Origin: a virus
Length of the DNA stretch: 18,996 nt
Reading direction: 5' to 3' (one strand)
Virus genome (UHGV): UHGV-0337515
Shown here: positions 3,898 to 18,996 of the stretch, one piece after another
Position numbering within the stretch: the first letter of the stretch is position 1
How the letters are laid out: each line of letters starts with the position of its first letter
Made by a program: the position numbers and the translations under genes
Notes under the pieces: model-generated
Databases searched by the model: none
What the model was told of the DNA's origin: nothing
Seen by the model: the letters and a program-made list of their open reading frames with translations, nothing else

Positions 3898-3919
3898 TTG
3901 CGTTTTGGGGATATGAATT

Positions 3920-4261
3920 ATGGCAATTAATGGCGCTGCGGCGACTGTTCCATTAAGCCCCGGTGAACGCCTGAATGGACTTAATCACATTGCGGAGTTA
4001 AGGGCGAAAGTTTTTGGTCTGAATATTGAGTCAGAGCTTGAGCGGTTTATTAAAGATATGCGTGATCCACGCGATATTAATAGCGAACAAAATAAACGGG
4101 CACTGGCTGCCATATTCTTTATGGCAAAAATTCCAGCTGAACGTCATAGCATCAGCATTAATGAGCTGACCACTGACGAAAAGCGGGAGTTGATTAAAGC
4201 AATGAATCATTTTCGTGCAGTAGTGAGCTTATTTCCCAGACGGCTAACCATGCCGAATTAA
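3920..4261 (+). CDS. Hypothetical early protein (113 aa)
   Basis: ORF with GGGGA upstream of the ATG at 3920; sits among the early genes. Confidence 0.55.
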   Translation: MAINGAAATVPLSPGERLNGLNHIAELRAKVFGLNIESELERFIKDMRDPRDINSEQNKRALAAIFFMAKIPAERHSISINELTTDEKRELIKAMNHFRAVVSLFPRRLTMPN

Positions 4262-4328
4262 CCAACTAATGAAATTAATGGCGTAAACCCGCCGGGCATC
4301 CCTTTATCTAAATTCAGGAGAATTGATT

Positions 4329-4562
4329 ATGCGTAATATTGAAACCCTCTCGACCAAAACCGGACCGGATGACGCAGGGCTTAATATTTTACTGACAGAG
4401 GCTCGTCTGGAAGAACGCCGGGCAAGGGCTGAAGCAATGGCAGCTCGCCTTGATAGCCTGGCGTGTCATATCACATCCCGCCAGCTAACCCACGTCGAAG
4501 CGGCAGAACTGCTTCGTGTGACTGCTGAAGCAATCCAGAACGAAGCGCAGGAGATCCACTAA
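4329..4562 (+). CDS. Hypothetical early protein (77 aa)
   Basis: ATG at 4329 with CAGGAG 8 nt upstream; the track start at 4323 is TTG. Stop abuts the next gene's start. Confidence 0.55.
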   Translation: MRNIETLSTKTGPDDAGLNILLTEARLEERRARAEAMAARLDSLACHITSRQLTHVEAAELLRVTAEAIQNEAQEIH

Positions 4563-4789
4563 TGGCTGATGCAATGGATCTCGTACAGCAGCGCGTTGAA
4601 GAAGAACGCCAACGCCATATCCGTGCTGCCCGTGCCAAAACGCCGGGCGTGTCCCGCGTGCTTTGCATTGAGTGTGAAGCGCCAATTCCGCCAGCACGCC
4701 GCCGTGCCATTCCGGGTGTGCAGCTTTGCATTACCTGTCAGGAAATCGCAGAGCTGAAAGGCAAACATTACAACGGAGGTGCTGTATGA
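4562..4789 (+). CDS. TraR/DksA-family C4 zinc-finger protein (P2 Orf82-like)
   Basis: C-terminal CxxC-(17 aa)-CxxC (CIECEAPIPPARRRAIPGVQLCITCQ) typical of the TraR/DksA zinc finger. Same position as P2 orf82 upstream of A. Confidence 0.7.
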   Translation: MADAMDLVQQRVEEERQRHIRAARAKTPGVSRVLCIECEAPIPPARRRAIPGVQLCITCQEIAELKGKHYNGGAV

Positions 4790-5643
4790 GCACCATCCTG
4801 AAATGGGCGGGAAATAAAACCGCCATTATGTCTGAACTGAAAAAACATCTTCCTGCTGGCCCGCGACTGGTTGAACCTTTCGCGGGTTCCTGTGCAGTGA
4901 TGATGGAGACGGAGTACCCCAGCTATCTTGTCGCGGATATTAATCCTGATTTAATCAACCTCTATAAAAAGGTTGCTGCTGATTGTGAATCGTTTATATC
5001 TCGCGCCAGAGTTTTATTTGAGATCGCAAACAGGGAGGTGGCTTATTACAACATAAGGCAGGAGTTTAATTACTCAACTGAAATTACTGATTTCATGAAA
5101 GCGGTATATTTCCTGTATCTCAATCGTCACGGTTACCGTGGTTTATGTCGCTATAACAAGAGCGGGCATTTCAACATTCCCTACGGTAATTATAAAAATC
5201 CGTATTTCCCTGAAAAAGAAATTCGCGCATTTGCAGAAAGGGCCCAGCGAGCAACGTTTATCTGCGCCAGCTTTGATGAAACGCTGGCGATGTTGAAGGC
5301 GGGGGATGTGGTGTATTGCGATCCGCCGTATGACGGTACGTTTTCCGGCTATCACACTGACGGCTTCACTGAAGATGACCAGTATCACCTGGCATCTGTT
5401 CTTGAACATCGGTCATCAGAAGGACATCCGGTCATTGTTTCTAACAGTGACACATCCCTGATCCGTTCGCTGTATCGCAATTTTACTCACCACTACATCA
5501 AGGCAAAACGCAGCATCGGTGTGGCAGCTGGCGAGGGTAAATCAGCAACAGAAATCATTGCTGTTTCCGGGCCGCGCTGCTGGGTGGGATTTGATTATTC
5601 GCGTGGCGTGGACAGTTCTGCCGTGTACGAGGTGCGTGTATGA
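4786..5643 (+). CDS. dam: DNA adenine methyltransferase (Dam-like, N6-adenine)
   Basis: Starts [11 protein letters not shown] (Dam N-terminal SAM-binding signature) and contains the DPPY catalytic motif ([10 protein letters not shown]). ATG at 4786 has GGAGGTG upstream and overlaps the preceding stop. The track extension from 4726 is unsupported. Confidence 0.88.
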
Positions 5644-8054
5644 GTCATGCCGATATGAGCGACTCTAGCGGCTTTAACGAGGCCGCTGCAGCATTTTCAT
5701 GGAACGGCCCGAAAAAGGCCATAAACCCTTATCTGGACCCGGCGGAAGTTGCGCCGGTTTCTGCGCTTTCAAACCTGATCACTCTGTATGCTGCCGATAA
5801 CGAGCAGGAACAGCTGCGCCGCGAGGAATTGAGTGAACAGGTCTGGGAGCGTTATTTCTTTAATGAATCCCGTGATCCTGTCCAGCGCGAAATGGAGCAG
5901 GATAAGCTCATTAGTCGGGCAAAGCTGGCGCATGAGCAGCAGCGTTTTAACCCGGACATGGTCATTCTGGCGGACGTCAGCGCCCAGCCCACCCACATCA
6001 GCAAGCCGCTGATGCAACGTATCGAATACTTCTGCAGCCTTGGCAGGCCAAAGGCTTATTCCCGCTATTTGCGTGAGACGATTAAGCCATGTCTGGAGCG
6101 ACTGGATTGTGTACGCGACAGTCAGCTATCCACTTCTTTTCGCTTTATGGCGAGCCATGAAGGGCTGGACGGCCTGCTGATCCTGCCTGAAATGAGTCAG
6201 GATCAGGTGAAACGCCTGTCCACCCTGGTAGCTGCGCATATGAGCATGTGCCTTGATGCAGCTTGTGGCGATTTGTATGCCACCGATGACGTTAAGCCAG
6301 AAGAAATCCGCAAGACATGGGAAAGGGTGGCAGCAGAAACCCTGCGACTGGATGTTATCCCACCTGCGTTTGAGCAACTCCGCCGGAAAAGAAACCGCCG
6401 TAAACCCGTGCCCTATGAACTCATTCCGGGTTCGCTGGCGCGTATGTTGTGCGCCGACTGGTGGTATCGGAAATTATGGAAGATGCGTTGCGAATGGCGG
6501 GAAGAGCAGTTGCGCGCTGTCTGCCTGGTCAGCAAAAAAGCATCTCCCTATGTCAGCTATGAAGCCGTGATGCATAAACGTGAGCAGCGCCGTAAGTCGC
6601 TGGAGTTTTTTCGTTCTCATGAACTGGTGAACGAAGACGGCGATACGCTGGAGATGGAAGACGTGGTAAACGCCAGCAGCAGCAACCCTGCGCATCGCCG
6701 CAATGAGATGATGGCCTGTGTTAAAGGTCTGGAGCTTATCGCGGAAATGCGCGGTGACTGCGCCGTTTTCTACACCATCACCTGTCCGTCACGTTTCCAT
6801 TCCACGCTAAATAACGGCAGACCAAACCCGACCTGGACAAACGCGACGGTAAGACAAAGCAGTGATTATCTGGTCGGCATGTTTGCTGCATTTCGTAAAG
6901 CGATGCACAAAGCCGGATTGCGCTGGTATGGCGTGCGGGTGGCTGAGCCGCATCATGACGGTACAGTTCACTGGCACCTGTTGTGTTTTATGCGCAAAAA
7001 AGATCGCCGAGCCATTACTGCTTTGTTGCGTAAGTTTGCCATTCGTGAAGACCGCGAGGAGCTGGGTAATAACACGGGACCACGCTTTAAGTCTGAGCTG
7101 ATAAACCCGCGCAAAGGTACGCCAACAAGCTACATCGCGAAATACATCAGTAAGAACATTGACGGGCGTGGTCTGGCTGGTGAGATCAGCAAGGAAACGG
7201 GTAAATCCCTGCGTGATAACGCTGAATACGTTAATGCCTGGGCGTCTCTGCATCGTGTTCAGCAATTTCGCTTCTTTGGTATTCCGGGGCGTCAGGCTTA
7301 CCGTGAACTGCGATTGCTGGCTGGTCAGGCGGCAAGGCAGCAGGGGGACAAAAAAGCAGGTGCGCCGGTACTGGATAACCCACGCCTTGATGCCATCCTG
7401 GCTGCTGCTGATGCTGGCTGTTTTGCCACCTACATCATGAAGCAGGGCGGCGTGCTGGTTCCCCGCAAATATCACCTTATCAGAACAGCTTATGAAATTA
7501 ACGAAGAGCCGACCGCCTATGGCGATCACGGTATTCGTATTTATGGCATCTGGTCACCCATTGCAGAGGGCAAGATCTGCACTCATGCCGTGAAGTGGAA
7601 AATGGTTCGTAAGGCCGTTGACGTTCAGGAGGCGGCAGCCGACCAGGGCGCTTGCGCCCCTTGGACTCGTGGCAATAACTGTCCCCTTGCTGAAAATTTG
7701 AACCAACAGGAGAAAGATAAATCAGCTGATGGGGACACCAGAACGGACATTATCCGCATGGATGACAAGGAGTTGCACGATTACCTGCACAGTCTGAGCA
7801 AAAAAGAGCGCCGGGAACTGGCAGCAAGGTTACGCCTGGTTAAGCCGAAATGGCGTAAAGACTACAAACAGCGAATTACAGATCATCAGCGACAGCAGCT
7901 CGTCTATGAACTGAAGTCCAGGGGATTTGATGGCAGCGAGAAAGAGGTCGATTTACTGCTTCGCGGCGGCAGTATTCCGTCAGGAGCAGGCCTGCGTATC
8001 TTCTATCGGAACCAGCGTTTGCAGGAAGATGATAAGTGGCGAAACCTGTATTAA
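5640..8054 (+). CDS. A: Replication initiator A (rolling-circle nicking protein, P2 gpA / 186 RepA family)
   Basis: 804-aa protein with an HUH-like motif ([10 protein letters not shown]) and paired tyrosines (SYIAKYISK) as in the P2 A active site. Start overlaps the dam stop (ATGA). Confidence 0.9.
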
Positions 8055-8146
8055 TTACGCGGGTTAACAATTCGTGCTCTTAATAATACCAGGCATATCA
8101 GGCTGATGAGCGTAAAAAAACGTTTTACATCAGTAAGATTATTATA

Positions 8147-8166
8147 TACTGTAAATATAAACAGTG
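8147..8166. promoter_or_regulatory. LexA (SOS) box TACTGTAAATATAAACAGTG overlapping a probable promoter of the tum-like operon
   Basis: CTGT-N8-ACAG palindrome; matches the LexA consensus TACTGTATATATATACAGTA at 16 of 20 positions. Lies about 40 bp upstream of the ORF at 8207, with TTTACA (8124-8129) and TATACT (8145-8150) promoter-like hexamers nearby. Confidence 0.65.
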
Positions 8167-8206
8167 GTTATGTATACAGTATTGCTTTGGTGTCATAGGA
8201 GGAAAG

Positions 8207-8395
8207 ATGCAGGACTATTTTTTGGAGTCTTTGAAGCTCCAGCGCATTGATTTTTTTCTTAAGCTTGTAGCGGCTAGTGAGTGTAGTGATGAAGAGAAGG
8301 GGCTGGCTCTGCAGTGGGTTTCTGAACTGACAGATGAACTCATGGCAAAAATCAGAAGCCACGAATACAACCGCTCAATGGATGTCATCAGCTGA
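8207..8395 (+). CDS. Small LexA-regulated protein (62 aa), possibly the N-terminal part of a Tum-like antirepressor
   Basis: Excellent SD AGGAGG 4 nt upstream of the ATG at 8207, directly downstream of the LexA box. Sits where 186 has tum. Confidence 0.6.
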   Translation: MQDYFLESLKLQRIDFFLKLVAASECSDEEKGLALQWVSELTDELMAKIRSHEYNRSMDVIS

Positions 8396-8405
8396 GGTGA
8401 CTTTT

Positions 8406-8639
8406 ATGCGCATTGAAATAATGATCGATAAAGAGCAGAAGATTAGCCAGTCTACCCTGGACGCCCTTGAATCCGAGCTTTACCGCAATCTGCGCCCCCT
8501 GTATCCCAAAACGGTAATCCGTATCCGTAAAGGTAGCTCTAACGGTGTGGAACTGACCGGACTGCAACTGGACGAAGAAAGAAAACAAGTGATGAAAATT
8601 TTGCAGAAGGTGTGGGAAGACGACAGCTGGCTGCATTGA
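8406..8639 (+). CDS. DinI-family protein (77 aa), like the C-terminal domain of 186 Tum
   Basis: MRIEIMIDKEQKISQSTLDALESELYRNLRPLYP…KQVMKILQKVWEDDSWLH parallels E. coli DinI (MRIEVTIAK…ILQETWE…DDW). ATG at 8406 with GAGGTGA upstream. Confidence 0.8.
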   Translation: MRIEIMIDKEQKISQSTLDALESELYRNLRPLYPKTVIRIRKGSSNGVELTGLQLDEERKQVMKILQKVWEDDSWLH

Positions 8640-8694
8640 TTTTGTCAATAGACGCTTGTTTTTACTAATCAAAAAGGGTTACATATGAGTGAGA

Positions 8695-8727
8695 GGCGAT
8701 GTCAATCAGATATCGCCTTGTTTTTTG
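8695..8727 (+). terminator. Weak candidate terminator hairpin between the DinI-like gene and the lipoprotein gene
   Basis: Inverted repeat ggcgat/atcgcc (8695-8700 / 8712-8717) followed by ttgttttttg. Confidence 0.3.
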
Positions 8728-8752
8728 TCAAGAAAAGAATAATAGGCTAAAA

Positions 8753-9430
8753 ATGAAAATTAATAATGTAGCGTTACCAATATCTCTTGCTGTAATCCTA
8801 ACTGGTTGCGTGCCACATGCTTCTAACCGAAATATCACTGCTATTGAAGTGGTGAAGCCAGCTATTGGGCAAAGTGCTACCGCCTACATGGGCGATCCCA
8901 TTATCACATCTGCTACTGGATTTAAAACGGACGTACTAGAACTTGGTGCGGCTAATGGTGCATTGTCTTCTATCGCTGCTGGTACATATTGCAGTGAGGG
9001 GAATGGAATTTACCGCAATTATCATAACCCTCAAGCTGTTGCGTTAAAAAATCTCTATGGGCAAATCGGTAACTATGTTGATTATGTTAGTTACGATGCT
9101 GCAAAAAATGAGATATCACCGCCAAATGGCACTTCTTATACTGCATCAGAAATTTCTATCAAACGTGTTCCTGATGGGCTGTGTCGAGTGAGTAATTCAT
9201 TGGTTAAGACTATCGAATATAATGGAAATGCAGGCGGTGTAATGAAGTTCACCTATCGTGAATTTGCAAACGATATGGCTCGTGCAGCATTTACAACAGA
9301 TTTTTCTGTAGATTCTAAGGGAAGTGATGTTATCGCTTACAAAGGTGCCAAGTTCAAAGTGAACAAGGCTGATAACTCGTCTATTTCTTATACAATTATT
9401 TCTGGCTTTGACAAGGCTGTCACGTTCTAG
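8753..9430 (+). CDS. Lipoprotein of unknown function (accessory gene)
   Basis: From ATG at 8753: MKINNVALPISLAVILTGC, a canonical lipoprotein signal peptide with lipobox LTGC. GC looks lower than the phage core genes. The track start at 8699 would put 18 residues in front of the signal peptide. Confidence 0.7.
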   Translation: MKINNVALPISLAVILTGCVPHASNRNITAIEVVKPAIGQSATAYMGDPIITSATGFKTDVLELGAANGALSSIAAGTYCSEGNGIYRNYHNPQAVALKNLYGQIGNYVDYVSYDAAKNEISPPNGTSYTASEISIKRVPDGLCRVSNSLVKTIEYNGNAGGVMKFTYREFANDMARAAFTTDFSVDSKGSDVIAYKGAKFKVNKADNSSISYTIISGFDKAVTF

Positions 9431-9533
9431 GTTTCACGCTTACTGAGTATGTTACGATTTTGCACATTCTGCATAAACGCGCATGTCTATGCTGCATGAG
9501 ATCGCATGATCGTTTGAGGATCTTTTGTGTTAA

Positions 9534-9559
9534 GGCCCGCCAGTTCTGGCGGGCTTTTG
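9534..9559 (+). terminator. Rho-independent terminator after the lipoprotein gene
   Basis: GC-rich hairpin gcccgccag / ctggcgggc (9535-9543 / 9546-9554) followed by TTTT. Confidence 0.6.
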
Positions 9560-9603
9560 CGTAGATCATGCAGGTGCATGAAAACCACTACATAAAGCGG
9601 GCA

Positions 9604-9622
9604 GGCGTGGCGGGGATACGAG
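9604..9622. other. cos-like sequence (candidate cohesive-end site)
   Basis: GGCGTGGCGGGGATACGAG; the first 13 nt match the remembered 19-nt cohesive end of 186 (GGCGTGGCGGGGA…) and P2 (GGCGAGGCGGGGAAAGCAC). Located between the A-side genes and Q, as in P2/186. Assignment from memory. Confidence 0.35.
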
Positions 9623-9660
9623 CGCGCGCAACCTGATTTGATTGAGAAAGTTTGGCTAGT

Positions 9661-9717
9661 CTTCTGATAAGTCGGAGGTCATGTGATGGGTTACTGTAGT
9701 AGAGGGTAATATCAGAA
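9661..9717. repeat. 9-bp inverted repeat (cttctgata … tatcagaag) flanking a 39-bp spacer, just upstream of the cassette promoter
   Basis: Arms at 9661-9669 and 9709-9717 are exact reverse complements. Confidence 0.4.
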
Positions 9718-9724
9718 GAGGGTT

Positions 9725-9753
9725 TTGACTTGAGGTGTAGTTGCAGTATTATA
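9725..9753 (+). promoter_or_regulatory. Candidate sigma70 promoter of the two-gene cassette (TTGACT-16/17 bp-TATTAT)
   Basis: -35 TTGACT at 9725-9730 and -10 TATTAT at 9747-9752, followed by AAGGA (9761-9765) and ATG at 9775. Confidence 0.55.
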
Positions 9754-9774
9754 AAAAGAAAAAGGATCTTTCTT

Positions 9775-10506
9775 ATGTACAGATTGTGGGTTTTATGGGG
9801 TTGTATCTTTGTTCTTCTACTTATTATCATGGGGTGCATTCCGTTTTCACCGTTTGAAAAATGGTGGTTTATAGTTAATTTCATGTCAAATGTAAACATA
9901 ATTCGTGCTTTTCTATCAGTATTAATACTATTTTTAGTTGCTTATATCTTGCTGGTCGGTGCATTTCATCAAAGATATTCATTGAGATTAGAGCAACTTA
10001 GTTTTGGTGGTATTAATATTTTACTAAATAAGTCTGATCTTCTTTTTAAAAAGAGCGTAAAAAATTATCTGGATACGAAGCGAACATTATTTAAATTTGA
10101 TCCGAATTATGACTCAATTGAAGAAGTTTTAAACTCATATTATGAGTGCTATAAATTCATTAGAGATGAAATGAAATTACTAGATGTGAAGAAAAAAAGA
10201 GATAAAAAACTGTATTTACTTTCAAATGAAATTTTGAAAACGTTAAACTCTTTTTTAACAAAGCATCAAAATAATTATCGGAGATGGCATAAATATGTTT
10301 CAGATAATGATAAAGTGACCACAAAGGATAGAGACCCTAACGGCGAATTTATATCATTGCCGTATCATTTAACCCCTATAAGTACTATACAAAAGCATTA
10401 TTATCATTTTAGTCAAGTATTGGAAGGTTTTAAAGAAGTAAACGATTTCTTCAATGATAAGGTAGTCAAAGAGTTTGATATAAATGTTGATAAATGGAGT
10501 GAATAA
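9775..10506 (+). CDS. Membrane protein with two N-terminal transmembrane helices and a ~170-aa helical C-terminal domain; candidate defence effector
   Basis: From ATG at 9775: hydrophobic helices LWVLWGCIFVLLLIIMGCIPF and IIRAFLSVLILFLVAYILLVGAF. Very AT-rich compared with flanking phage genes. Stop overlaps the next gene's start (TAATG). The track start at 9730 is TTG inside the promoter. Confidence 0.75.
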   Translation: MYRLWVLWGCIFVLLLIIMGCIPFSPFEKWWFIVNFMSNVNIIRAFLSVLILFLVAYILLVGAFHQRYSLRLEQLSFGGINILLNKSDLLFKKSVKNYLDTKRTLFKFDPNYDSIEEVLNSYYECYKFIRDEMKLLDVKKKRDKKLYLLSNEILKTLNSFLTKHQNNYRRWHKYVSDNDKVTTKDRDPNGEFISLPYHLTPISTIQKHYYHFSQVLEGFKEVNDFFNDKVVKEFDINVDKWSE

Positions 10507-11123
10507 TGCATAAGACGTTTCTTAGTTATCATCATGCTAACGAACAAGATCTCAAAGATGAGATTATTGATTTATTCGGAGGAGAATCGTTTATTGATAA
10601 GTCGGTAAGTGATGGTGACATTAGTACAACTAACACTGATGAAACAATAATGAGGACTATTCGTGAGGATTTTTTAAAAGACTCAACGGTTACTGTCGTT
10701 CTTATTGGAACGGAAACCAAAAATCGTCCATTTGTAAACTCTGAAATTCAAGCATCACTCTGGGGAGAAAACTATAATGGTCTAATTGGTGTTATCAGAG
10801 ATGAAATTTACGACAGTGTGTTTACTCCTGCAGTATGTGCAGATCCATCATGCGGATGTTCTATAAGTCTAAGAACGCCAGGTTGGGGATATGATTATTA
10901 TTTGCCTTATCTGGTTAGAAAGAATCATGTTTATGAAAAAACAGTTCCCCATTATAATGACTCTGACGTATATTGTGCATTGGTAAAATACTCTGTCTTT
11001 ATTAAAAATCCTGAGTATTATATTGATCAGGCATTTAACAAGCGTAAGTTGATGGAACCAGCTGCTAAACGAAATCCATCGGATGTTCCTGCAATTCGCA
11101 GCTCATCAATTTTTAACTGGTAA
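10506..11123 (+). CDS. TIR-like domain protein (ThsB/DUF1863-like), candidate defence sensor or NADase
   Basis: N-terminus MHKTFLSYHHANEQD fits the TIR first-strand signature (compare ThsB …VFFSFHYQD… as remembered); central TVTVVLIGTETKNRPFVNSEIQ fits the TIR core strand plus conserved Glu region. Translationally coupled to the upstream membrane protein. AT-rich. Confidence 0.7.
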   Translation: MHKTFLSYHHANEQDLKDEIIDLFGGESFIDKSVSDGDISTTNTDETIMRTIREDFLKDSTVTVVLIGTETKNRPFVNSEIQASLWGENYNGLIGVIRDEIYDSVFTPAVCADPSCGCSISLRTPGWGYDYYLPYLVRKNHVYEKTVPHYNDSDVYCALVKYSVFIKNPEYYIDQAFNKRKLMEPAAKRNPSDVPAIRSSSIFNW

Positions 11124-11128
11124 TAAGA

Positions 11129-11166
11129 GGGTGCATAAACATTATGCACCCATATGCTATTTTTTA
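11129..11166. terminator. Terminator hairpin between the convergent cassette and Q
   Basis: Perfect 10-bp inverted repeat gggtgcataa / ttatgcaccc (11129-11138 / 11142-11151) with a 3-nt loop, followed by a T-run at 11160-11165. Confidence 0.5.
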
Positions 11167-12198
11167 ACTTTGGAGAGAATATGGTAAAAAATTAATAATT
11201 GTGTTTCCTATCCATTGATTTAATTGTTCTATACGTTTTTGTAAGGGGATAAGTTCGTTACGAACAAATACATTACTTGCCTTCTCCACATCCCCAAACC
11301 CCCCAACATTATTCGGCATAATACCCATCATTTGTGGCGGTACACGGTGCGCCGCCATCATGTCATCACGGCTGACGTTCTTGATATTCAAAAACTCATC
11401 CTTCGCCGCGACTTCTGACAACGGGATGATCTGAAGCCCGTCCTTTTTGCCGTTTGGCGAGTACATAAATAGGTTACGGAAGTTACCAGGACCTTTGGCA
11501 CTTTTCATCGCGTTGCGGAGGTTGTTTACATCCTCCTGGTTCTGCGCGGCGTCGGTCATATACATGATGAAGCCTGCATGACTGCCGTTAATGTAATACT
11601 TGCGGCGGAACAGCGTGGCAGACTCGTTGAGCAGGGCGGATGGAATAGCAGAAAGATAACCGGGCAGGCCGTAGATTTCCTGGTTGATGTCCGGTTCCAT
11701 CAGATGAAAGATGCTGCCTTTCGTGAACTGATATGGCTGGGTGATCATACCGTATTGCACAAACCAGTAGGTATCTAGGTCTAACCCGCGTCGGGTGTAT
11801 TTTGCCAGAGCAGGCTCAAGGGCGATAACTTCACCGAACCGGTTCGTGCGTTTCTCCAGGTAGGCGTTACCAAATACCAGATAGTCCTGCACAAAACGTG
11901 AAAAAGCCTGCTGGCTGAGCAGCGGGTGAGGGATGTAGGTGCTGGTCAGAATGTTGCATTTCACTGCAATCGGTGAACTGTGGTGTACGGCTGCGCGGAA
12001 TGTTCGTGCCAGTCCGTCAAAACTCACTGGCGGCTCATACCAGCGATCTGTCTGTACGCATTCCACATAGTCCAGCAGTTCACGGCGGTCCAGAACCGGA
12101 ACGGGATCGCCGAAGCTGAATGCTTCGGCTGAAGTCTGGTTTTTATGCTGGATCTGATTCATCGCCGCTGCGCGGTTTTTCTTACTCTTTCCCATCAA
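11164..12198 (-). CDS. Q: Portal protein (P2 gpQ family)
   Basis: 344 aa starting MMGKSKKNRAA…; strong similarity throughout to remembered P2 gpQ (…DPVPVLDRRELLDYVEC…YEPPVSF…NESATLFRRKYY…VFVRNELIPLQ…). Confidence 0.92.
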   Translation of the reverse strand: MMGKSKKNRAAAMNQIQHKNQTSAEAFSFGDPVPVLDRRELLDYVECVQTDRWYEPPVSFDGLARTFRAAVHHSSPIAVKCNILTSTYIPHPLLSQQAFSRFVQDYLVFGNAYLEKRTNRFGEVIALEPALAKYTRRGLDLDTYWFVQYGMITQPYQFTKGSIFHLMEPDINQEIYGLPGYLSAIPSALLNESATLFRRKYYINGSHAGFIMYMTDAAQNQEDVNNLRNAMKSAKGPGNFRNLFMYSPNGKKDGLQIIPLSEVAAKDEFLNIKNVSRDDMMAAHRVPPQMMGIMPNNVGGFGDVEKASNVFVRNELIPLQKRIEQLNQWIGNTIINFLPYSLQS

Positions 12199-13961
12199 AA
12201 AATCTCCACAATATTGCTGGTATTGGCGGACTCGCCCTGCAGCGGTTCGTTAAACAGTGCGTGCATTGTTGCCCAGGCCAGATCGGCATGGCTGGCTTCT
12301 TCGCTGCGGCTGGCTTCATAGGTCGGGCGGTTGCCGCTGGCGGTGGTGGCGCGACGGATCGCCATGAATGACTGCGCAATGTCGGTGTGCCCGGCGTCAA
12401 ACTCCAGACGGCGGTGGCTGATAATGTCGTAGGCCTTGAGTACTAGGGCGTTTTTAACGTTGGGGTTGTAGACAAACTCCCGGACGGCAGGAAAGAACGC
12501 TTTCACGTTCTCGTAAACCCCGTGACCAACGCCGGTTGAGTCGATGCCGATGTATGTCACGTTGTACTGTTCGGTCAGTTTTTTGATGGCGTCCGCCTGG
12601 GCGCGGAAGTCCATCCCGCGCCACTGGTGACGCTCAAGAATACGGAACTTACCGCCCGGCACAGCTGGCGGAGCCACCACCACGCACCCGGCACTGTCAC
12701 CGTTCTGCGTACCTTTTGCTGGGTCATAACCGATCCACACCTCGCGCCAGCCAAACGGGCGCAGGGCCAGTGCATGAAAGTCGGTCCAGACTTCCCAACT
12801 GTCCACCATGCACGCCTGCAGTTCGCTGAGCGGGAACACGGACGCGAGATCGTCCACAAACTCGCACATCAGCAGGTTCTGGTATTCGTCCGGGCTGTAC
12901 TCCATGCGCAGCTGGTCGAGGTCGAACAGGTTACAGCCGCCGCGCACCGCATCTTCCACGGTGACTATCTGGCGGTATTGCCCGTCTGCGCACAGCAGGC
13001 CGGGGGCCAGATTGATGTGGGACAGGTCGATGTCCACCTTGTCAGCTTTGTTGCGTCCACGGTTGAACAGCGCACCGGACCAGAACGGATAAGCACTGTG
13101 GGTCAGGCTGGATGGCGTGGAAAAATAGGTTTGTCGCCATTTCTTGTGAATAGCCATCCCGGAAGCCACTTTGCGCAGCTCCTGAAATTTCGGTATCCAG
13201 AAATATTCATCCAGATACAGGTTGCCGTGATAACTCTGGGCCGTGCGGGCATTGGTGCCGAGGAAGTAAAGCGTGGCTCCGTTAGGAAGCACCATCGGAT
13301 CGCCTTTTAGCTCCACCTCGACTTCTTTGGCGAAGTCGATGATGTATTGTTTAAAGACGTGGGCCTGAGCCTTACTGGCAGAAAGGAAAATCTGGTTACG
13401 TCCGGTAAGCAGGGCGTCAATCAGGGCTTCACGGGCAAAGTAAAAGGTCGCGCCGATCTGGCGTGACTTCAGCAGGTTGCGGATGCGGTTGGTTTTTCCG
13501 GCTTCCCACCAGTGGCGCTGGTAGTTGAACATGGAGGAATGGAAAATTTCTTCCAGCTTCTCAATCTGTTCATCGGTGAAAACATTCTTTTCCGGCTGAC
13601 GACGTGGGCCTTTGTTGCGGTTGGCAACGTTAGGGTTTAAGTCGGCTTCGTTGCCGCCATTGTTAAACTTGCCGATCCGCGCGTGGCGCTCAGACTGGCG
13701 TGCCAGCAGGTCAATTTCTTTGAAATCTTTCCCTTCTTTGTGCTCCTTCATAATGAGCTGGCAGTAGCGTGCGGCGGTGGTGAGCTGCATCTGATCCAGC
13801 GGCCCATAGTCACCCCACTTGTCGCGTTTTTTCCAGCTGTGAATGGTTGCAACTTTCTCGCCCAGCATTTCAGCAATGCGGGCGACGCGGTATCCCTGAA
13901 AGTACAGCAGCATAGCCTGCCGACGGGGATCGAGATCTGCGGGTGTCAGTGTGGTGTTCAT
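12195..13961 (-). CDS. P: Terminase large subunit (P2 gpP family)
   Basis: 588-aa ORF immediately upstream of Q on the same strand, size and position of P2 gpP; overlaps the Q start. Confidence 0.88.
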   Translation of the reverse strand: MNTTLTPADLDPRRQAMLLYFQGYRVARIAEMLGEKVATIHSWKKRDKWGDYGPLDQMQLTTAARYCQLIMKEHKEGKDFKEIDLLARQSERHARIGKFNNGGNEADLNPNVANRNKGPRRQPEKNVFTDEQIEKLEEIFHSSMFNYQRHWWEAGKTNRIRNLLKSRQIGATFYFAREALIDALLTGRNQIFLSASKAQAHVFKQYIIDFAKEVEVELKGDPMVLPNGATLYFLGTNARTAQSYHGNLYLDEYFWIPKFQELRKVASGMAIHKKWRQTYFSTPSSLTHSAYPFWSGALFNRGRNKADKVDIDLSHINLAPGLLCADGQYRQIVTVEDAVRGGCNLFDLDQLRMEYSPDEYQNLLMCEFVDDLASVFPLSELQACMVDSWEVWTDFHALALRPFGWREVWIGYDPAKGTQNGDSAGCVVVAPPAVPGGKFRILERHQWRGMDFRAQADAIKKLTEQYNVTYIGIDSTGVGHGVYENVKAFFPAVREFVYNPNVKNALVLKAYDIISHRRLEFDAGHTDIAQSFMAIRRATTASGNRPTYEASRSEEASHADLAWATMHALFNEPLQGESANTSNIVEIF

Positions 13962-14007
13962 GGCACAAACCTACAGCCTTGAATGACGGCTTTCCCCGCC
14001 TGCGGTT

Positions 14008-14025
14008 TGTGTGGTTGTCGGTACA
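14008..14025. promoter_or_regulatory. Candidate Ogr-dependent late promoter element (TGT-N12-ACA) in the divergent P/O control region
   Basis: TGTGTGGTTGTCGGTACA fits the TGT-N12-ACA dyad of P2-family late promoters; lies about 80 bp upstream of the O start codon. Confidence 0.45.
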
Positions 14026-14103
14026 AATACCGCGCATTGTTTCACTGCCCCCATCACCGCAACCATAAGGCTCCAGTAAGTTTTTTCTAACGGAGCACGG
14101 CTC

Positions 14104-14937
14104 ATGACAGTGAAAGCAAAGCGTTTTCGCATCGGGGTGGAAGGTGCCACCACCGACGGACGCGAAATCCAGCGTGAATGGCTGGAACAGATGGCAGCCA
14201 GCTACAACCCGGCGGTGTATACCGCGCTGATTAACCTTGAGCACATCAAGTCTTATCTGCCGGACAGCACCTTTAACCGCTACGGCAAGGTGACTGCGCT
14301 GTTTGCTGAAGAAATCACGGAAGGTCCGCTGGCAGGCAAGATGGCGCTGTATGCCGACGTTGAGCCAACGGAGTCCCTGGTGGAACTGGTGAAAAAAGGC
14401 CAGAAATTATTCACCTCTATGGAAGTCAGCCCGAAGTTTGCTGATACGGGCAAAGCCTACCTGGTCGGCCTGGCTGCCACTGATGACCCTGCCAGTCTGG
14501 GCACTGAAATGCTGACATTCAGCGCCAGTGCAGCACATAACCCGCTGGCAAACCGCAAGCAGAATCCCGCCAATCTTTTTACCGCTGCAGAGGAAACGGT
14601 GATCGAACTGGAAGAAATCCAGGAGGACAAGCCGTCCCTGTTTGCCCGCGTCACGGCGCTGTTCACCAAAAAAGAGCAGTCCGATGATGCCAAGTTCTCT
14701 GATGTGCATAAGGCCGTGGAACTGGTCGCCACTGAGCAGCAGAACCTGAGCACGTGCACCGAAAAATCCCTGTCTGAGCAGGAAGAACGCCTGTCTGAGC
14801 TGGAGGCTGCCCTGCAGGCACAGCAGACCGCCTTTAACGAACTGGTGGACAAGCTGAGCCATGAAGACAGCCGCCAGGACTACCGCCAGCGTGCAACAGG
14901 CGGTAACGCCCCCGCTGACACTCTGACCAATTGCTGA
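14104..14937 (+). CDS. O: Capsid scaffolding protein (P2 gpO family)
   Basis: 277 aa starting MTVKAKRFRIGVEGATTDGREI…; first rightward late gene, size close to P2 gpO (about 284 aa). Confidence 0.85.
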   Translation: MTVKAKRFRIGVEGATTDGREIQREWLEQMAASYNPAVYTALINLEHIKSYLPDSTFNRYGKVTALFAEEITEGPLAGKMALYADVEPTESLVELVKKGQKLFTSMEVSPKFADTGKAYLVGLAATDDPASLGTEMLTFSASAAHNPLANRKQNPANLFTAAEETVIELEEIQEDKPSLFARVTALFTKKEQSDDAKFSDVHKAVELVATEQQNLSTCTEKSLSEQEERLSELEAALQAQQTAFNELVDKLSHEDSRQDYRQRATGGNAPADTLTNC

Positions 14938-14953
14938 TGGAGCACAAAACCTG

Positions 14954-15334
14954 ATGAAGAAGAATACCCGCTTTGCTTTTAACGCTTACCTGCAGCAGCT
15001 GGCGCGTCTGAACGGTGTGGCAGTTGAAGAACTGTCCAGCAAGTTCACTGTGGAGCCGTCTGTGCAGCAGACGCTGGAAGACCAAATCCAGCAGTCCGCC
15101 GCTTTCCTGACGCTGATTAACGTCACGCCAGTGACTGAGCAGTCCGGTCAGCTGCTGGGGCTGGGTGTTGGCACCCGCCGCCGCTCAGTTATCGACAACC
15201 CGAAACGTGACCGGATTGAAAACTTTGAATCCGTTAACGAAGCCTATGTAGTTGAGGACTACCGCTGCGCCGCACTGGTGGAAAACATCCAGATTGGCGA
15301 CTTCAGCGCCGCCGCAGCAGAAGCCGGAGCGTAA
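14954..15334 (+). pseudogene. N: Major capsid protein gene N with a large in-frame internal deletion (126 aa instead of about 357)
   Basis: N-terminus (MKKNTRFAFNAYLQQLARLNG…FTVEPSVQQTL…) and C-terminus (…DNPKRDRIENFESVNEAYVVEDYRCAALVENIQIGDFSAAAAEAGA) both match P2 gpN ends, but the middle ~230 residues are absent. Junction near 15175-15185. Confidence 0.7.
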
Positions 15335-15337
15335 ACC

Positions 15338-15988
15338 ATGAGCCTGAGTCCCGCACGGCAGCATCGCCTGCGCGTTCAGGCTGAACAGGCCGCCCGTGAG
15401 GGCGGCAGTGTTCGCCACGCGTCGGGCTATGACCTGATGCTGCTGCAACTGGCGGAAGACCGCCGCCGTCTCAAGGGCGTTCAGTCCACGGTGAAAAAAG
15501 CGGAAATAAAGGTGGAGCTGCTGCCGAAATATGCCGCCTGGGCGGAGGGCGTCCTGGCTGCCGGAGGCGCTCAACAGGATGACGTGCTGATGTACGTGAT
15601 GCTGTGGCGCATTGATGCCGGAGATTATGCCGGGGCGCTGGAGATCGGGCGTCATGCCCTGCGTCATGGCTGGGTGATGCCGCTGGGTAACCGCAACGTG
15701 CAGACCGTGCTGGCAGAGGAAATGGCAGACGCCGCGCAGAGCGCAATGCTTGCCGCCACCGGCTTTGATGCCGATCTGTTGCTGCAGACGCTGGAGCTGA
15801 CAGACGGTCTGGATATGCCGGACCAGTCACGGGCTCGTCTGCATAAAGCGATTGGCGCGGTCCTGAGTGAAAGCAATCCGGCGTCTGCCCTTAATCATCT
15901 CAACCATGCGTTACAGCTCGATCCCCGCTGTGGCGTGAAAAAAGACAAACAGCAGCTGGAGCGCAGACTGCGCAATGACAGCCGCTGA
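15338..15988 (+). CDS. M: Terminase small subunit (P2 gpM family)
   Basis: …LLPKYAAWAEGVLAAGGAQQDDVLMYVMLWRIDAGDYAGALEIGRHAL…TLELTDGLDMPDQSRARLHK… parallels remembered P2 gpM. Confidence 0.85.
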   Translation: MSLSPARQHRLRVQAEQAAREGGSVRHASGYDLMLLQLAEDRRRLKGVQSTVKKAEIKVELLPKYAAWAEGVLAAGGAQQDDVLMYVMLWRIDAGDYAGALEIGRHALRHGWVMPLGNRNVQTVLAEEMADAAQSAMLAATGFDADLLLQTLELTDGLDMPDQSRARLHKAIGAVLSESNPASALNHLNHALQLDPRCGVKKDKQQLERRLRNDSR

Positions 15989-16083
15989 CAGAACGTGCCC
16001 CCGCGCACGGGCGGCACGGGGTGGCGAAAGGCACTGCCACATCAAAACCCCGTCCACCGCCCTCTATTTCAGGAGAAAGCAGC

Positions 16084-16548
16084 ATGAAGTTTGTTGCGCC
16101 AGAACAGGCACCGGAACAGGCGGAAATCATCAGAAATACGCCGTTCTGGCCTGATGTGGACCTGTCGGAGTTTCGCAGTGTCATGCGCACTGACGGCACG
16201 GTGACGCAGCCGCGTTTAAAGCAGGTTGCGCTGTCGGCAATTTCGGAGGTCAACGCAGAGCTGTATGAGTTTCGCAGACGCCAGCAGATGCTGGGGTATA
16301 CCTCGCTGGCAGAGGTTCCGGCGGAACAGCTGGACGGCAAAAGTGAGCGCATTCAGCACTATTTCAACGCGGTTTACTGCTGGGCACGCGCCATGCTCAA
16401 CGAACGTTACCAGGACTATGACGCCACGGCATCCGGTGTGAAGCGGGGCGAGGAACTGGCGGAAGCCAGCGGTGATTTATGGCGTGACGCCCGCTGGGCC
16501 ATCAGCCGGGTACAGGACGCGCCGCACTGCACAGTGGAGCTTATCTGA
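16084..16548 (+). CDS. L: Capsid completion protein (P2 gpL family)
   Basis: ATG at 16084 with AGGAGAAAG upstream. A GTG at 16021 would add 21 residues but lacks a good SD. Position after M as in P2. Confidence 0.75.
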   Translation: MKFVAPEQAPEQAEIIRNTPFWPDVDLSEFRSVMRTDGTVTQPRLKQVALSAISEVNAELYEFRRRQQMLGYTSLAEVPAEQLDGKSERIQHYFNAVYCWARAMLNERYQDYDATASGVKRGEELAEASGDLWRDARWAISRVQDAPHCTVELI

Positions 16549-16751
16549 TGAAAGTGCGTGCGCATCAGTATGACACGGTGGACGCGCTTTGCTGGCGTCA
16601 TTACGGGCGCACGCAGGGTGTCACGGAGCAGGTCCTGAAGGCAAATCCGGGGCTTGCCGAATATGGCCCCTTTTTACCTCACGGGCTGCAGGTGGAGCTG
16701 CCGGACATTCCGACAACCACCACCGTGCAGACCGTCCAGCTATGGGACTGA
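16548..16751 (+). CDS. X: Tail protein X (P2 gpX family)
   Basis: 67 aa MKVRAHQYDTVDALCWRHYGRTQGVTEQVLKANPGLAEYGPFLPHGLQVELPD… matches P2 gpX in length and sequence. Confidence 0.85.
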   Translation: MKVRAHQYDTVDALCWRHYGRTQGVTEQVLKANPGLAEYGPFLPHGLQVELPDIPTTTTVQTVQLWD

Positions 16752-16754
16752 ATT

Positions 16755-16970
16755 ATGACGCTTGAGCGAATCAGCGCCTTTATCACGTATTGCATCGCCG
16801 TCGTGCTGGCCTGGCTGGGCGATTTGTCCATCAAGGATGCCTCAACGCTGGGCGGCCTGATGATCGGTGTGCTGATGCTGGCTATCAACTGGTACTACAA
16901 ACACAAAGCCTACCAGCTTCTGCGCGACGGGCAGATCTCGCGGGAGGACTATGAATCCATCAATCGTTAA
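16755..16970 (+). CDS. Holin (two hydrophobic segments, charged C-terminus)
   Basis: 71 aa with two hydrophobic helices and a charged tail (…YYKHKAYQLLRDGQISREDYESINR), at the holin position before the endolysin. Confidence 0.65.
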   Translation: MTLERISAFITYCIAVVLAWLGDLSIKDASTLGGLMIGVLMLAINWYYKHKAYQLLRDGQISREDYESINR

Positions 16971-17109
16971 ACGCTGCCTTGTCGGGGCCGTGCTGGCTAT
17001 TGCTGCCACGCTGCCGGGGTTTCAGCAGCTTCACACCTCCGTGGAGGGGCTGAAACTGATTGCCGATTACGAAGGCTGTCGTCTGCAGCCGTATCAGTGC
17101 AGCGCGGGT
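16951..17109 (+). pseudogene. N-terminal stub of a SAR-type endolysin (GH24 lysozyme); remainder deleted
   Basis: MNPSIVKRCLVGAVLAIAATLPGF…EGLKLIADYEGCRLQPYQCSAG parallels the P1 Lyz N-terminus (…AGLELIGNAEGCRRDPYMCPAGVWTDGIG…). After about residue 53 the frame runs out of frame into gene U. Confidence 0.7.
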
Positions 17110-17110
17110 G

Positions 17111-17590
17111 ATGGTGCTGGGATTGTACGTGTTTATGCTGCGCACCGTTCCGTATCAGGAACTGCAGTATCAACGCAGCTGGCGACATGCGGCAAACAGT
17201 CGGGTAAACCGACGTCCGTCCACGCAGTTTCTGGGACCGGAAAACGACATGCTGACGCTTTCCGGTGTTCTTATGCCGGAGATAACAGGCGGCAGGCTGT
17301 CGTTGCTGGCACTGGAGCAGATGGCAGAACAGGGGAAAGCATGGCCCCTGATTGAAGGCAGTGGCACGATTTACGGTATGTATGTGATTGAGGGACTGAA
17401 TCAGACTAAAACGGAGTTTTTCCGCGATGGTATGCCGCGCCGGATTGAGTTTACCCTGTCGCTCAAACGGGTGGATGAATCCCTGTCCGATATGTTCGGT
17501 GATCTCAGTGCGCAGCTGAATAATTTGCAGGATACGGTAACGTCTGCCTTAAGCGATATCAGTAAAACGGTGGGAGGGCTGCTGTCGTGA
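17111..17590 (+). CDS. U: Tail protein U (P2 gpU family)
   Basis: MVLGLYVFMLRTVPYQELQYQRSWRHAANSRV…LSGVLMPEITGG…AWPLIEGSGTIYGMYVI…RVDESL matches P2 gpU. Its usual upstream context is replaced by the endolysin stub and no good SD is visible. Confidence 0.8.
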   Translation: MVLGLYVFMLRTVPYQELQYQRSWRHAANSRVNRRPSTQFLGPENDMLTLSGVLMPEITGGRLSLLALEQMAEQGKAWPLIEGSGTIYGMYVIEGLNQTKTEFFRDGMPRRIEFTLSLKRVDESLSDMFGDLSAQLNNLQDTVTSALSDISKTVGGLLS

Positions 17591-18687
17591 ATTTCAGCTC
17601 TGAACTGCTTAACAAAGGCAACAAAACTCCGGCATTTAGCATCAGTATTGAAGGCAGGGATATCACTACTGTGCTGGACAACCGCCTGATGGGGCTTACG
17701 CTGACGGATAACCGGGGCTTTGAAGCGGACCAGCTTGATCTGGAGCTGGACGACGCCGATGGAAAAATCGTGCTGCCGCGCCGTGGTGCGGTCATTACGC
17801 TGGCGCTGGGCTGGAAGGGGCAGCCGCTTTTCCCGAAAGGGGCATTCACGGTGGACGAGATTGAACACACTGGCGCACCGGACCGCCTGACTATCCGGGC
17901 GCGAAGTGCTGATTTTCGTGAAACACTGAATACCCGCCGTGAAAAGTCGTGGCACAAGACCACCGTTGGGGAAGTGGTGAAGGAAATAGCTGCGCGGCAC
18001 AAACTGAAGATGGCATTGGGTAAAGACCTGTCAGATAAACCCGTGGAACATATAGATCAGACCAATGAGAGTGACGGCAGTTTTCTGATGCGGCTGGCGC
18101 GCCAGTACGGTGCTATTGCGTCGGTGAAAAATGGCAATCTGTTATTCATCCGACAGGGGCAGGGTAAAAGCGCCAGTGGTAAACCACTACCGGTTATCAC
18201 TATCACACGTAAGGACGGCGACAGTCACCGCTTTACCCTGGCAGATCGCGGAGCTTACACGGGCGTAATTGCCAGCTGGTTGCATACCCGCGAACCCGCG
18301 AAGAAAGAAAGCACCGCGGTGAAGCGTAAGCGCAGGACTAAGAAGCAGAAGAAAGAGCCGGAAACGAAGCAGGGCGATTATCTGGTGGGTACGGATGAAA
18401 ACGTGCTGGTACTTAATCGCACCTATGCTAATCGGAGTAACGCCGAACGGGCAGCGAAAATGCAGTGGGAACGCCTGCAACGCGGCGTTGCGTCATTCTC
18501 GCTACAACTGGCGGAAGGGCGGGCAGATCTCTACACGGAAATGCCAGTGAAAGTCAGTGGCTTTAAACAGCCGATAGATGATGCGGAATGGACCATTACG
18601 ACTCTGACGCATACCGTCAGCCCCGATAACGGTTTTACAACCAGTCTGGAGCTTGAAGTGAGGATTGATGATTTCGAAATGGAATGA
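17587..18687 (+). CDS. D: Tail protein D (P2 gpD family)
   Basis: 366-aa ORF with GTG start overlapping the U stop and GGGAGGG upstream; last tail gene before ogr as in P2. Confidence 0.85.
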   Translation: MNFSSELLNKGNKTPAFSISIEGRDITTVLDNRLMGLTLTDNRGFEADQLDLELDDADGKIVLPRRGAVITLALGWKGQPLFPKGAFTVDEIEHTGAPDRLTIRARSADFRETLNTRREKSWHKTTVGEVVKEIAARHKLKMALGKDLSDKPVEHIDQTNESDGSFLMRLARQYGAIASVKNGNLLFIRQGQGKSASGKPLPVITITRKDGDSHRFTLADRGAYTGVIASWLHTREPAKKESTAVKRKRRTKKQKKEPETKQGDYLVGTDENVLVLNRTYANRSNAERAAKMQWERLQRGVASFSLQLAEGRADLYTEMPVKVSGFKQPIDDAEWTITTLTHTVSPDNGFTTSLELEVRIDDFEME

Positions 18688-18777
18688 TTCTTCGCAATGG
18701 AGAACTTTTAAGTTTGCAAAATGGAATAATGCGGTATCATTATTGTGAATTTAGCAAAAATGGGGAGAACTCGAAAA

Positions 18778-18996
18778 ATGATGATTTGCCCACTGTGTGG
18801 AAGTGCCGCCCATACTCGCAGCAGTTTTCAGGTATCTTCATTGACCAAAGAGCGTTACAACCAGTGCCAGAACATTAACTGCAGCCATACTTTTGTTACC
18901 CATGAAACTTTTGTTCGTTCGATTGCAACGCCAAAAGAGTCAAATCCGGTTCAGCCACATCCAATGAAATCAGGACAGGTGGCGCTCTCTCTTTGA
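18778..18996 (+). CDS. ogr: Late-gene transcriptional activator Ogr (zinc finger; 186 B family)
   Basis: 72 aa from ATG 18778: MMICPLCGSAAHTRSSF…KERYNQCQNINCSHTFVTHETF…PHPMKSGQ matches P2 Ogr (CPLC…CQN.NCS zinc finger). Stop codon is the last three bases of the window. Confidence 0.9.
   Translation: MMICPLCGSAAHTRSSFQVSSLTKERYNQCQNINCSHTFVTHETFVRSIATPKESNPVQPHPMKSGQVALSL

Follow-up and report, generated by a model that had tools for sequence, protein, structure and literature searches.

The virus genome UHGV-0337515 was analysed as a single stretch of 18,996 nucleotides (the window). It is a defective P2-like (Peduoviridae) prophage in the Escherichia coli chromosome, situated in the interval between rcdA and ybjL. 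The left end of the window (positions 1–150) consists of rcdA sequence, from the 3' end of that gene, and the ybjL side is seen in scaffold L003, described below. In the right flank of the prophage, on a contig identical to the window, ybjL, ybjM, grxA, ybjC and nfsA have 100% identity to many E. coli chromosomes. A 14-bp att core, AACAAAAAACCCAT, is present on both sides of the prophage, as in an integrated element, and this prophage lineage is carried by about one-fifth of complete E. coli genomes.

Comparison by blastn with two reference phages, Klebsiella 4LV2017 (NC_047818, locus L001, 33,540 bp) and KP12 (L002), shows that the window is collinear with both at 95–98% nucleotide identity, except for two deletions and the cargo. 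The matched genes are int, a CI-type repressor, the early operon (with a Dam-like methylase and the rolling-circle initiator A), Q, P, O, N, M, L, X, the holin, U, D and ogr. The P2-like order int – repressor – early operon/A – cos – Q, P/O, N, M, L, X – lysis – tail – D – ogr is followed, and the Pfam families of these genes were seen on a contig identical to the window; the set of head, tail and lysis genes is incomplete. The element retains int, the repressor, the replication genes, cos, the portal, terminase and scaffold genes, the holin, U, D, ogr and a TIR-domain cargo gene. It has lost head building, tail building and cell-wall degradation.

The endolysin and capsid gene deletions

The holin is of the gpY type (HP1 family, 71 residues; 16755–16970, plus strand) and is intact. 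PF16080 is matched in identical copies, and the exact protein occurs in 71,517 blocks of the sequence collection. An open reading frame (ORF) that starts at 16951 shares 20 nt with the holin gene. Exactly this overlap is found in ten intact relatives with the identical holin, where the next gene encodes a PF00959 lysozyme of 170–171 residues. In the window, only 53 codons and one additional nucleotide of this endolysin gene, K, are left (16951–17110, plus strand), corresponding to residues 1–53 of the 170-residue PF00959 lysozyme. The initial annotation had described an endolysin N-terminal stub that continues into the tail gene U in a different frame, and this description is correct. The possibility that the stub is a complete small gene in intact phages is excluded by the full lysozyme in all ten relatives sampled. 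Judged from its sequence, residues 9–24 (CLVGAVLAIAATLPGF, preceded by KR) form a predicted, weakly hydrophobic and Gly/Ala-rich N-terminal segment of the signal-arrest-release (SAR) type. The stub keeps the catalytic Glu of the YEG motif. The Glu – Asp/Cys – Thr triad is incomplete, as the K-derived part stops at residue 53, short of the Thr of the VWT motif; the lysozyme of an intact relative matches PF00959 over residues 39–161. The ORF continues as a chimera of 134 residues (16951–17355, plus strand), in which K1–53 is followed by 81 residues read out of frame through gpU. A Pfam scan of this chimeric ORF gave no match, no gene call for it is present anywhere in the collection, and it is probably not a functional gene.

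Both blastn and a base-level view place the K|U junction at 17110|17111, where TG (17109–17110) is common to both parents, so that the position near 17108–17110 proposed initially was right to the base. The left parent ends at L001 19542 (...CAGCGCGGGTG) and the right parent begins at L001 31464 (ATGGTGCTGGG...). Relative to 4LV2017, 11,921 bp are absent, in line with the missing block of roughly 10 kb or more that had been estimated. The lost genes are K codons 54–170, a lysA-like gene, lysB/lysC, R, S, V, W, J, I, H, G, FI, FII, E, E' and T. The absence of the remaining endolysin, the lysis accessory genes and the tail genes R to T between the stub and U was confirmed by blastn, and no part of the DNA of L001 19543–31461 was found elsewhere in the window by the same method. 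Alignment to the intact phage 4LV2017 thus located both edges of the deletion, and the missing K-to-T block bears out the view of the element as a tail-less, lysis-defective remnant that arose through deletion.

Tail gene U (17111–17590, plus strand) encodes 159 residues and matches the PF06995 model over positions 1–120 of 120; in intact relatives the product has 161 residues. The reference U gene starts as ATGATGATGG, with GGGGGGAT ahead of the start and an overlap with the stop codon of T. The window has only the third ATG (17111). The native Shine-Dalgarno sequence and the coupling of U to T are gone in the base-level comparison, which agrees with the earlier remark that U was left without a recognisable Shine-Dalgarno sequence.

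The second deletion is situated in the major capsid gene N (14954–15334, plus strand), where 678 bp (226 codons) have been removed in frame and PF05125 is matched in two stretches. The product of 126 residues consists of N1–73 and N300–352. The junction is at 15173|15174 with a 2-nt overlap, CA, and L001 16928–17605 is absent. The packaging genes had been reported as intact; this holds for Q, P, O, M and L, which are of full length, and fails for N.

At the retained edges of the two deletions, the same heptamer is found in inverse orientation. In K, GCGGGTG (17104–17110, plus strand) is the left half of a site, referred to here as K53, that reads GCGGGT^GTCTGG when intact. In N, CACCCGC (15172–15178) is GCGGGTG on the minus strand and is the retained half of a site, N2, whose intact minus strand reads GGCGGCGGGT^GTCTTCC. 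The 1.94-kb block N'-M-L-X-Y-K' (15172–17110, plus strand) between the two inversely oriented sites has been kept, with both flanks deleted, in the window, in F829 (L019) and in L024.

The window is one sequence, with a 2-nt overlap at the joint, so an assembly or chimera artefact of a genome that really has its lysis and tail genes might be considered. However, L003 (a 131-kb scaffold) and L004 have 100.000% identity to window positions 4954–18996 through both junctions, a third contig differs from the window by one base, and the deleted capsid protein of 126 residues was found in 13 contigs from separate ENA and Logan samples; sample SAMN27113891 is one carrier of the element. Identical junctions are therefore present in independent assemblies of several samples, and analogous junctions occur in three finished genomes, in one of which (22F46) the query has a single location in the whole genome. 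The 100% identical contigs that cross both junctions exclude the mis-assembly that the initial annotation had allowed for, and the chance of any such artefact is negligible.

The window K|U junction itself is absent from 5,426 complete E. coli genomes, its exact 24-mer has no match in the GTDB species representatives, and the left flank followed by a base other than T after GGGTG has no match in the JGI metagenome contigs or GTDB. Because the junction is absent from these sets and its copies are identical, it represents one lineage. The 100% or 99.98% identity of the copies points to recent clonal spread rather than long-term selection. In calling the element domesticated, the initial annotation went too far: the copies show no divergence by which selection could be gauged, and the TIR cargo is no more than suggestive.

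Recurrence of the break sites

The breakpoint in K had been taken as an arbitrary accident. Instead, it is a strongly recurrent, nucleotide-precise break site, with the sequence GCGCGGGTGTCTGGACC. Three further defective prophages came to light in a screen of complete genomes; they occupy the same att site, are broken at the same place in K and are joined to other partners. In 22F46, K53 is joined to approximately codon 24 of the sheath gene with the overlap GGTG, and in F829 it is joined to an invertase gene with the overlap TGTCTGGA. Survcare253 retains the opposite side of the site: a terminase fragment is joined to K from codon 54 onward, with an overlap of about 5 nt.

The protein collection was searched with the 53-residue stub and with K residues 1–90. 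In at least 21 protein clusters the sequence departs exactly after K residue 53 into unrelated sequence. The partners that could be mapped are lysB, S, V (three times), J (three times), a tail-fibre assembly gene, an invertase gene (twice), the sheath C terminus, U (three times) and D (twice). Other genuine K fusions number about 15 and are scattered over codons 36–104, and the remaining K matches are frameshifts or small internal deletions. The excess at codon 53 is thus about 100-fold over neighbouring codons, and together with the three complete genomes the site has been used at least 24 times.

The contigs of seven K53 clusters are all E. coli rcdA/ybjL prophages with differing cargo genes. 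The alleles of the stub vary among carriers as well (A13/T13/G13, A18/T18, V38 and E31), and a comparison of the host flanks of 22F46 and of the window host shows 43 differences in 6,338 positions. As the carriers differ in cargo and in host flank, the events are independent. There have been at least two dozen such deletions, and the decay of this prophage lineage is non-random, with one phosphodiester bond as its recurrent target. No report of a K53 hot spot was found in the literature. A lone deleted prophage is routine; the recurrent, nucleotide-precise breakpoint is new, as far as the literature was searched.

Common descent from one ancestral K53 deletion, with the right side altered later by rearrangement or homologous recombination, would account for the att site shared by all carriers examined and for the 97–99.7% identity of their N2–K53 block. 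Defective prophages are reported to recombine with related phages (PMC3945230). However, homologous exchange cannot change the partner at a junction, and for this reason common descent is ruled out but for a very small residual probability. More than 20 second deletions would each have to begin exactly at the old junction, Survcare253 retains the opposite side of the site, and the same logic would be required independently for N2. The differing stub alleles and cargo and the 0.7% divergence of the host flanks also stand against it; host flank and stub alleles suggest that the K53 carriers are scattered among intact relatives.

N2 is the right edge of the N deletion in the window (...GGAAGACA|CCCGCCGCC; minus strand GGCGGCGGGTGTCTTCC), and this endpoint has been reused too. 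It is found in F829 (terminase P|N2), in L024 (CII|N2) and in the protein P0048 (N31|N2, an in-frame N deletion). K53 and N2 share the 10-mer GCGGGTGTCT in inverse orientation. Within two mismatches, the only other match in the phage is in the coding region of gene A, at 6935. This was rejected as a copy of the motif, being simply HUH-coding sequence. The motif shows no enrichment in the genome, and diversity among intact phages shows no abrupt change at N2 or K53. A polarity rule, by which the deletion would always lie 3' of the motif strand, was dropped, since ascertainment through the protein queries explains it in large part.

Several further observations were made on the K fusions. The in-frame K53 deletions (P0125–P0129, of which P0127 corresponds to loci L026–L028) are SAR-anchor fusions to gpV, a tail-fibre assembly protein, gpU, the sheath C terminus and gpS; the NCBI and UniRef entries for P0125 bear the name 'phage baseplate assembly protein V'. 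The gpV site (Apex domain, region of L007 13025) is a recurrent partner, joined to K53 in P0013 and P0023 and to K72 in P0101. Three different K53 junctions lie within 40 nt of each other at the gpJ C terminus (L007 14266–14306), at GGGGGTG / GGGTGTG. In the K53-deleted prophage L022, a partial duplicate of the terminase large-subunit gene (3844–6335; 241 residues, Terminase_6N) is situated between the portal gene and the full terminase gene.

A stub of 52 residues, cut at the contig end (...CAGCGCGGG), is found in 317 collection blocks (the ends of L030–L035, and L036–L050). A synonymous GGT/GGC polymorphism at K codon 53 is common, the C allele turning the hot-spot core into GCGGGCGTCT, and these contig-end stubs are due to it. 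A mobile element at K53, which hundreds of contigs ending in ...GCGGG had brought to mind, was discarded in favour of this polymorphism.

Position of the break and its possible cause

For ten junctions available at the DNA level, the range of K-derived ends permitted by the overlap with the partner was computed. GCGGGT^G is the one position that fits all ten, and L026, which has no overlap, fixes it. A break at GCGGGTG^ is ruled out by four junctions and one at GCGGG^ by a single junction. Past the T, no K-derived base is retained in four junctions, G in four, GTC in one, and GTCTGGA in one, where it lies inside an 8-nt overlap. In L023, an insert of 24 nt copied from U separates K53 from D. 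Among the partner sites, 12 of 14 have T at −1 and 9 of 14 have G at +1. Some resemble the core (GCGGAT^G, GCGAGT^G, GCGCT^G, GGGGGT^G, ACGGT^G and GGTGCT^G), and these fit either a second gyrase site or plain microhomology annealing.

A T^G position together with a 4-nt stretch of variable retention is the trace that would be expected of a cut by a type IIA topoisomerase. The forward-strand cut of DNA gyrase falls between −1 and 0 and its reverse-strand cut between 3 and 4, a stagger of 4 bp, and scission before G is favoured by quinolones (PMC6379681). The palindromic Topo-Seq consensus is ...GGCGGTAT^GGGG^ATACCGCC... (i.e. ...GGTAT^GGGG^ATACC...), and the cloned strong gyrase site (SGS) of phage Mu, ...ATCTGTGCGGGT^GATT^TTATGCC..., is in register with it (Table S2 of PMC6379681). 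In the cloned Mu SGS, the strongest gyrase site known, GCGGGT^GATT occupies the centre of the 133-bp fragment, and in the GenBank entry for Mu (AF083977) the 'gyrase cut site' at 17879..17880 reads GCGGCT^GATT in this orientation.

The break position at K53 had been deduced from the ten junctions before the comparison with the Mu site was made. The core GCGGGT^GTCT, set against Mu GCGG[C/G]T^GATT, has the features of a putative strong gyrase site, with a T^G cut and a 4-bp stagger. K53 (GCGGGT^GTCT^G), N2 (GCGGGT^GTCT^T) and Mu have the six bases before the cut as well as +1 and +4 in common, and N2 and the Mu core are identical at 13 of 17 positions from −6 to +11. As judged by sequence, the Mu SGS therefore appears to match K53 and N2 both in core and in cut register. 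It is also situated similarly, at 49% of Mu, with N2 at 52% and K53 at 58% of the prophage (L001 17605 and 19542 of 33,540), so that all are roughly central in prophages of about 35 kb. If they are genuine gyrase sites, K53 and N2 might even help the phage, as the central site does in Mu, by folding the 33-kb prophage into a supercoiled loop in which attL and attR would meet for excision. The differences are that the Mu SGS needs a phased right arm for its activity, whereas the K53 flanks lack a clear resemblance to the 130-bp gyrase motif; that the Mu SGS is intergenic with a known role in Mu replication, whereas K53 and N2 are inside coding sequence; and that cleavage at K53 and N2 is read from deletion scars.

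In the mechanism that we propose, K53 and N2 would be sites at which DNA gyrase, or a different type IIA topoisomerase, cleaves strongly. A cleavage complex would be trapped at the site, either spontaneously or through quinolones, leaving a 3' end ...GCGGGT and a 4-nt 5' overhang GTCT. This end would become linked to another break or cleavage complex at some other point in dispensable prophage DNA, by exchange of subunits or interfaces or by end joining over an overlap of 0–8 nt, and the intervening DNA would be lost. Illegitimate recombination by gyrase, with exchange of subunits or interfaces, has been a proposal since 1981 and is still described as unproven in vivo (PMC11164529).

Overall, the window has undergone two illegitimate deletions, and the best explanation, probable as a whole, is recurrent breakage at a proposed type IIA topoisomerase site and illegitimate joining. 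The deletions and their reality, the recurrence, the common break position and the sequence match to the Mu site are established; gyrase as the maker of the break, and the manner in which the ends were joined, are what we infer. That gyrase makes the recurrent break is suggested by the likeness to the Mu core and is a serious possibility, if just short of probable. Only tentatively can both GCGGGTGTCT sites be regarded as genuine strong gyrase sites, in which case the scars would document, naturally and in a form that can be counted, illegitimate recombination mediated by gyrase in wild E. coli, with quinolone exposure possibly as the driver.

Several results count against gyrase as the cause or limit what the recurrence can tell. 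In a crude comparison with the 133-bp consensus, the K53 flank has 35 identities against a mean of 33.5, and the N2 flank is only in the top 5% or so, by its G+C pattern. The reverse-strand cut at the site would precede A and not G. The GTCT of the K side is kept in about 1 of 24 products, whereas simple subunit exchange predicts about half. The T at −1 in 12 of the 14 partner sites is explained equally well by microhomology annealing, and further GCGGGTG heptamers are present in the phage, at the 5' end of P (window position 13939), in gene I and at FI codon 61. No codon-53 fusion was traced to Klebsiella or Salmonella, notwithstanding the motif in their phages, and the contexts looked up were all E. 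coli. In addition, the protein queries can pick up an event at K only if its left side has been kept, and one at N only if its right side has.

A different sequence-specific nick or cut, recognising about 10 bp, with the 3' end healed by microhomology-mediated joining, would also give one exact end. The shared 10-mer exceeds what the degenerate preference of a topoisomerase needs, and the templated insertion and the 0–8 nt overlaps indicate a free 3' end. Candidates are the terminase, at a pseudo-cos half-site, the rolling-circle initiator gpA, at a pseudo-origin, and a host or defence nuclease. For the terminase, both cos nicks are preceded by heptamers (GCGGGCA^ and GCGCGCG^; in P2, GCGGGCG^ and GCGCGCA^) that do resemble GCGGGTG^. 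However, the exact cos octamer AGCGGGCA, 110 bp downstream in K (codons 88–90), was used at most once against at least 24 times for K53, and a cos-like nick would give G^T while the best single position is T^G. The pseudo-cos half-site (GCGGGYR before both cos nicks) was dropped as the main explanation on these grounds. The P2 origin nick of gpA (GCGCCTCG^GAGTCC, annotated at 29892) and its homologue in the window (approximately 7660–7670) bear no resemblance to the hot spot, so the pseudo-origin was rejected, and a secondary integrase site was likewise set aside, since the att core is unrelated. No enzyme with such specificity was identified among known nucleases, and we consider this explanation unlikely. 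To our knowledge, no restriction enzyme, Gabija system, relaxase, group II intron or transposon end fits both the sequence and the cut position.

Replication stalling at a structure or a bound protein, with the template switched to a downstream microhomology, would require no enzyme-made break at all. It would accommodate the 24-nt templated insert of L023 and the overlaps that include imperfect 7–8-nt matches to the nascent end (GCGGAT, GCGAGT and GGGGGT). In contrast, single-strand folding at both sites is no better than that of shuffled sequences (z −1.4 to +0.4), the deletions of 1–14 kb far exceed the single-stranded region of a fork, and Survcare253 keeps the far side of the site. Stalling is therefore improbable. 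Hairpins and cruciforms as such were rejected by the same comparison with shuffles. Protection from RecBCD by a Chi-like sequence was discarded as well: Chi is absent from the phage, and with 71 sites that match it at 7/8 positions, a 6/8 match is not special. The canonical Chi sequence (GCTGGTGG) is present on neither strand of L001 (33.5 kb) or of the window, and several copies occur in the flanking E. coli DNA.

Topoisomerase-site breakage, the reading that we prefer, can be compared with two known routes of illegitimate joining. Classical gyrase-mediated illegitimate recombination, like the events described here, joins unrelated sequences independently of recA and with homology that is slight or absent; it too has T^G endpoints, junction ambiguity from the 4-nt stagger, and sites of which both sides can be used. 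The classical evidence comes from cell extracts and from selection of lambda transducing phages, usually with oxolinic acid, whereas here it is drawn from the variation of natural genomes. The two 4-nt overhang sequences do not segregate 1:1 here, as would be expected, and where the classical model has gyrase sites at both ends, the partner sites at K53 are candidates only. Alternative end joining (A-EJ) in E. coli was reportedly described by Chayot et al. in 2010. Like the joining seen here, A-EJ depends on ligase, acts at overlaps of 1–9 nt, deletes the intervening DNA and occasionally leaves templated insertions. In A-EJ both ends are resected by RecBCD, giving scattered endpoints, whereas one end is nucleotide-exact every time in the K53 deletions.

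If gyrase is the cause, the scars would be field evidence for topoisomerase-mediated illegitimate recombination, and the locus would offer a simple PCR-scale assay of quinolone-driven genome rearrangement. Genome annotation should then change too, as in-frame K53 fusions such as P0125 are deposited as ordinary proteins. If the cause is not gyrase, an unknown enzyme with a specificity of about 10 bp would be acting on these prophages. An example of a synonymous variant of the break-site core is GCAGGAGTATGG.

Related elements and remaining features of the prophage

The cryptic P2-like remnants of E. coli (the ogrK/D' fragment of K-12 and the prophage of B/BL21) resemble the window in that the morphogenesis genes are internally deleted and the ogr-proximal part is kept. 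In the BL21/NEBExpress prophage, scaffold gene O is joined to the lysozyme gene at query position 537 (approximately codon 115), compared with 350 in the window; not every K truncation thus uses the hot spot. The window is much younger than these remnants, being 95–98% identical to active phages and identical between samples, and it still keeps int, the repressor, the replication genes and cos.

P4-like satellites are likewise small integrated elements that have int, a repressor-like function, replication genes and cos and that lack capsid, tail and lysis genes of their own. The window differs from them in that it is 95–98% identical to a full phage on either side of plain deletion scars and retains the useless fragments N' and K'. 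Its genes are orthologues of full-phage genes or cargo, and genes for capsid-size redirection or helper activation are absent. The element is a broken phage rather than an evolved satellite.

The cos site of the window has a 19-nt cohesive end, GGCGTGGCGGGGATACGAG (9604–9622, plus strand), identified by alignment with P2 cos and 20 related loci; it is conserved in these loci and similar to P2 cos, as is typical of the P2/186 type. Among the related prophages (L001–L022), conservation ends exactly 7 nt past the right cos nick (...GATACGAG^CGCGCGC). A variable cargo or defence hotspot begins there, with a content that differs in every locus, and the cargo therefore forms the extreme left end of the packaged genome. 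In the window, this cargo occupies the region from cos to the portal gene Q (9630–11163, plus strand). It contains an ORF of 243 residues (9775–10506, plus strand) with no Pfam or PADLOC match, followed by a ThsB-like TIR protein of 205 residues (10506–11123, plus strand; Pfam PF08937, 1e-14; PADLOC ThsB, 6.5e-12). No recognisable ThsA is present. On the other side of cos, a predicted lipoprotein-like ORF of 225 residues (8753–9430) has no Pfam or PADLOC match.

In the annotation of P2, sites for the late-promoter activator are present at pO/pP, pV and pF. The large deletion has removed pV and pF from the window, and a pattern search located the only dyad left, TGT-N12-ACA, in the pP/pO region (14008–14025, plus strand). 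U and D are now downstream of the O operon and would depend on its read-through. The late gene D (17587–18687, plus strand) encodes 366 residues, is of full length, matches PF05954 and has 95–97% nucleotide identity to L001 and L002. The late-gene activator ogr (72 residues; 18778–18996, plus strand) matches PF04606 in L003, where 13825–14043 corresponds to the same window positions, and its stop codon is the end of the window.

At the left side, window positions 151–282 correspond to L001 14–145 and contain a duplicated remnant of the int 3' end together with attL. Between int and this remnant there is an insert of 350 bp (283–632), with an ORF of 89 residues on the minus strand (285–554). 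F829 has the same arrangement of int, insert and attL, and there the 89-residue ORF is annotated as a hypothetical protein.

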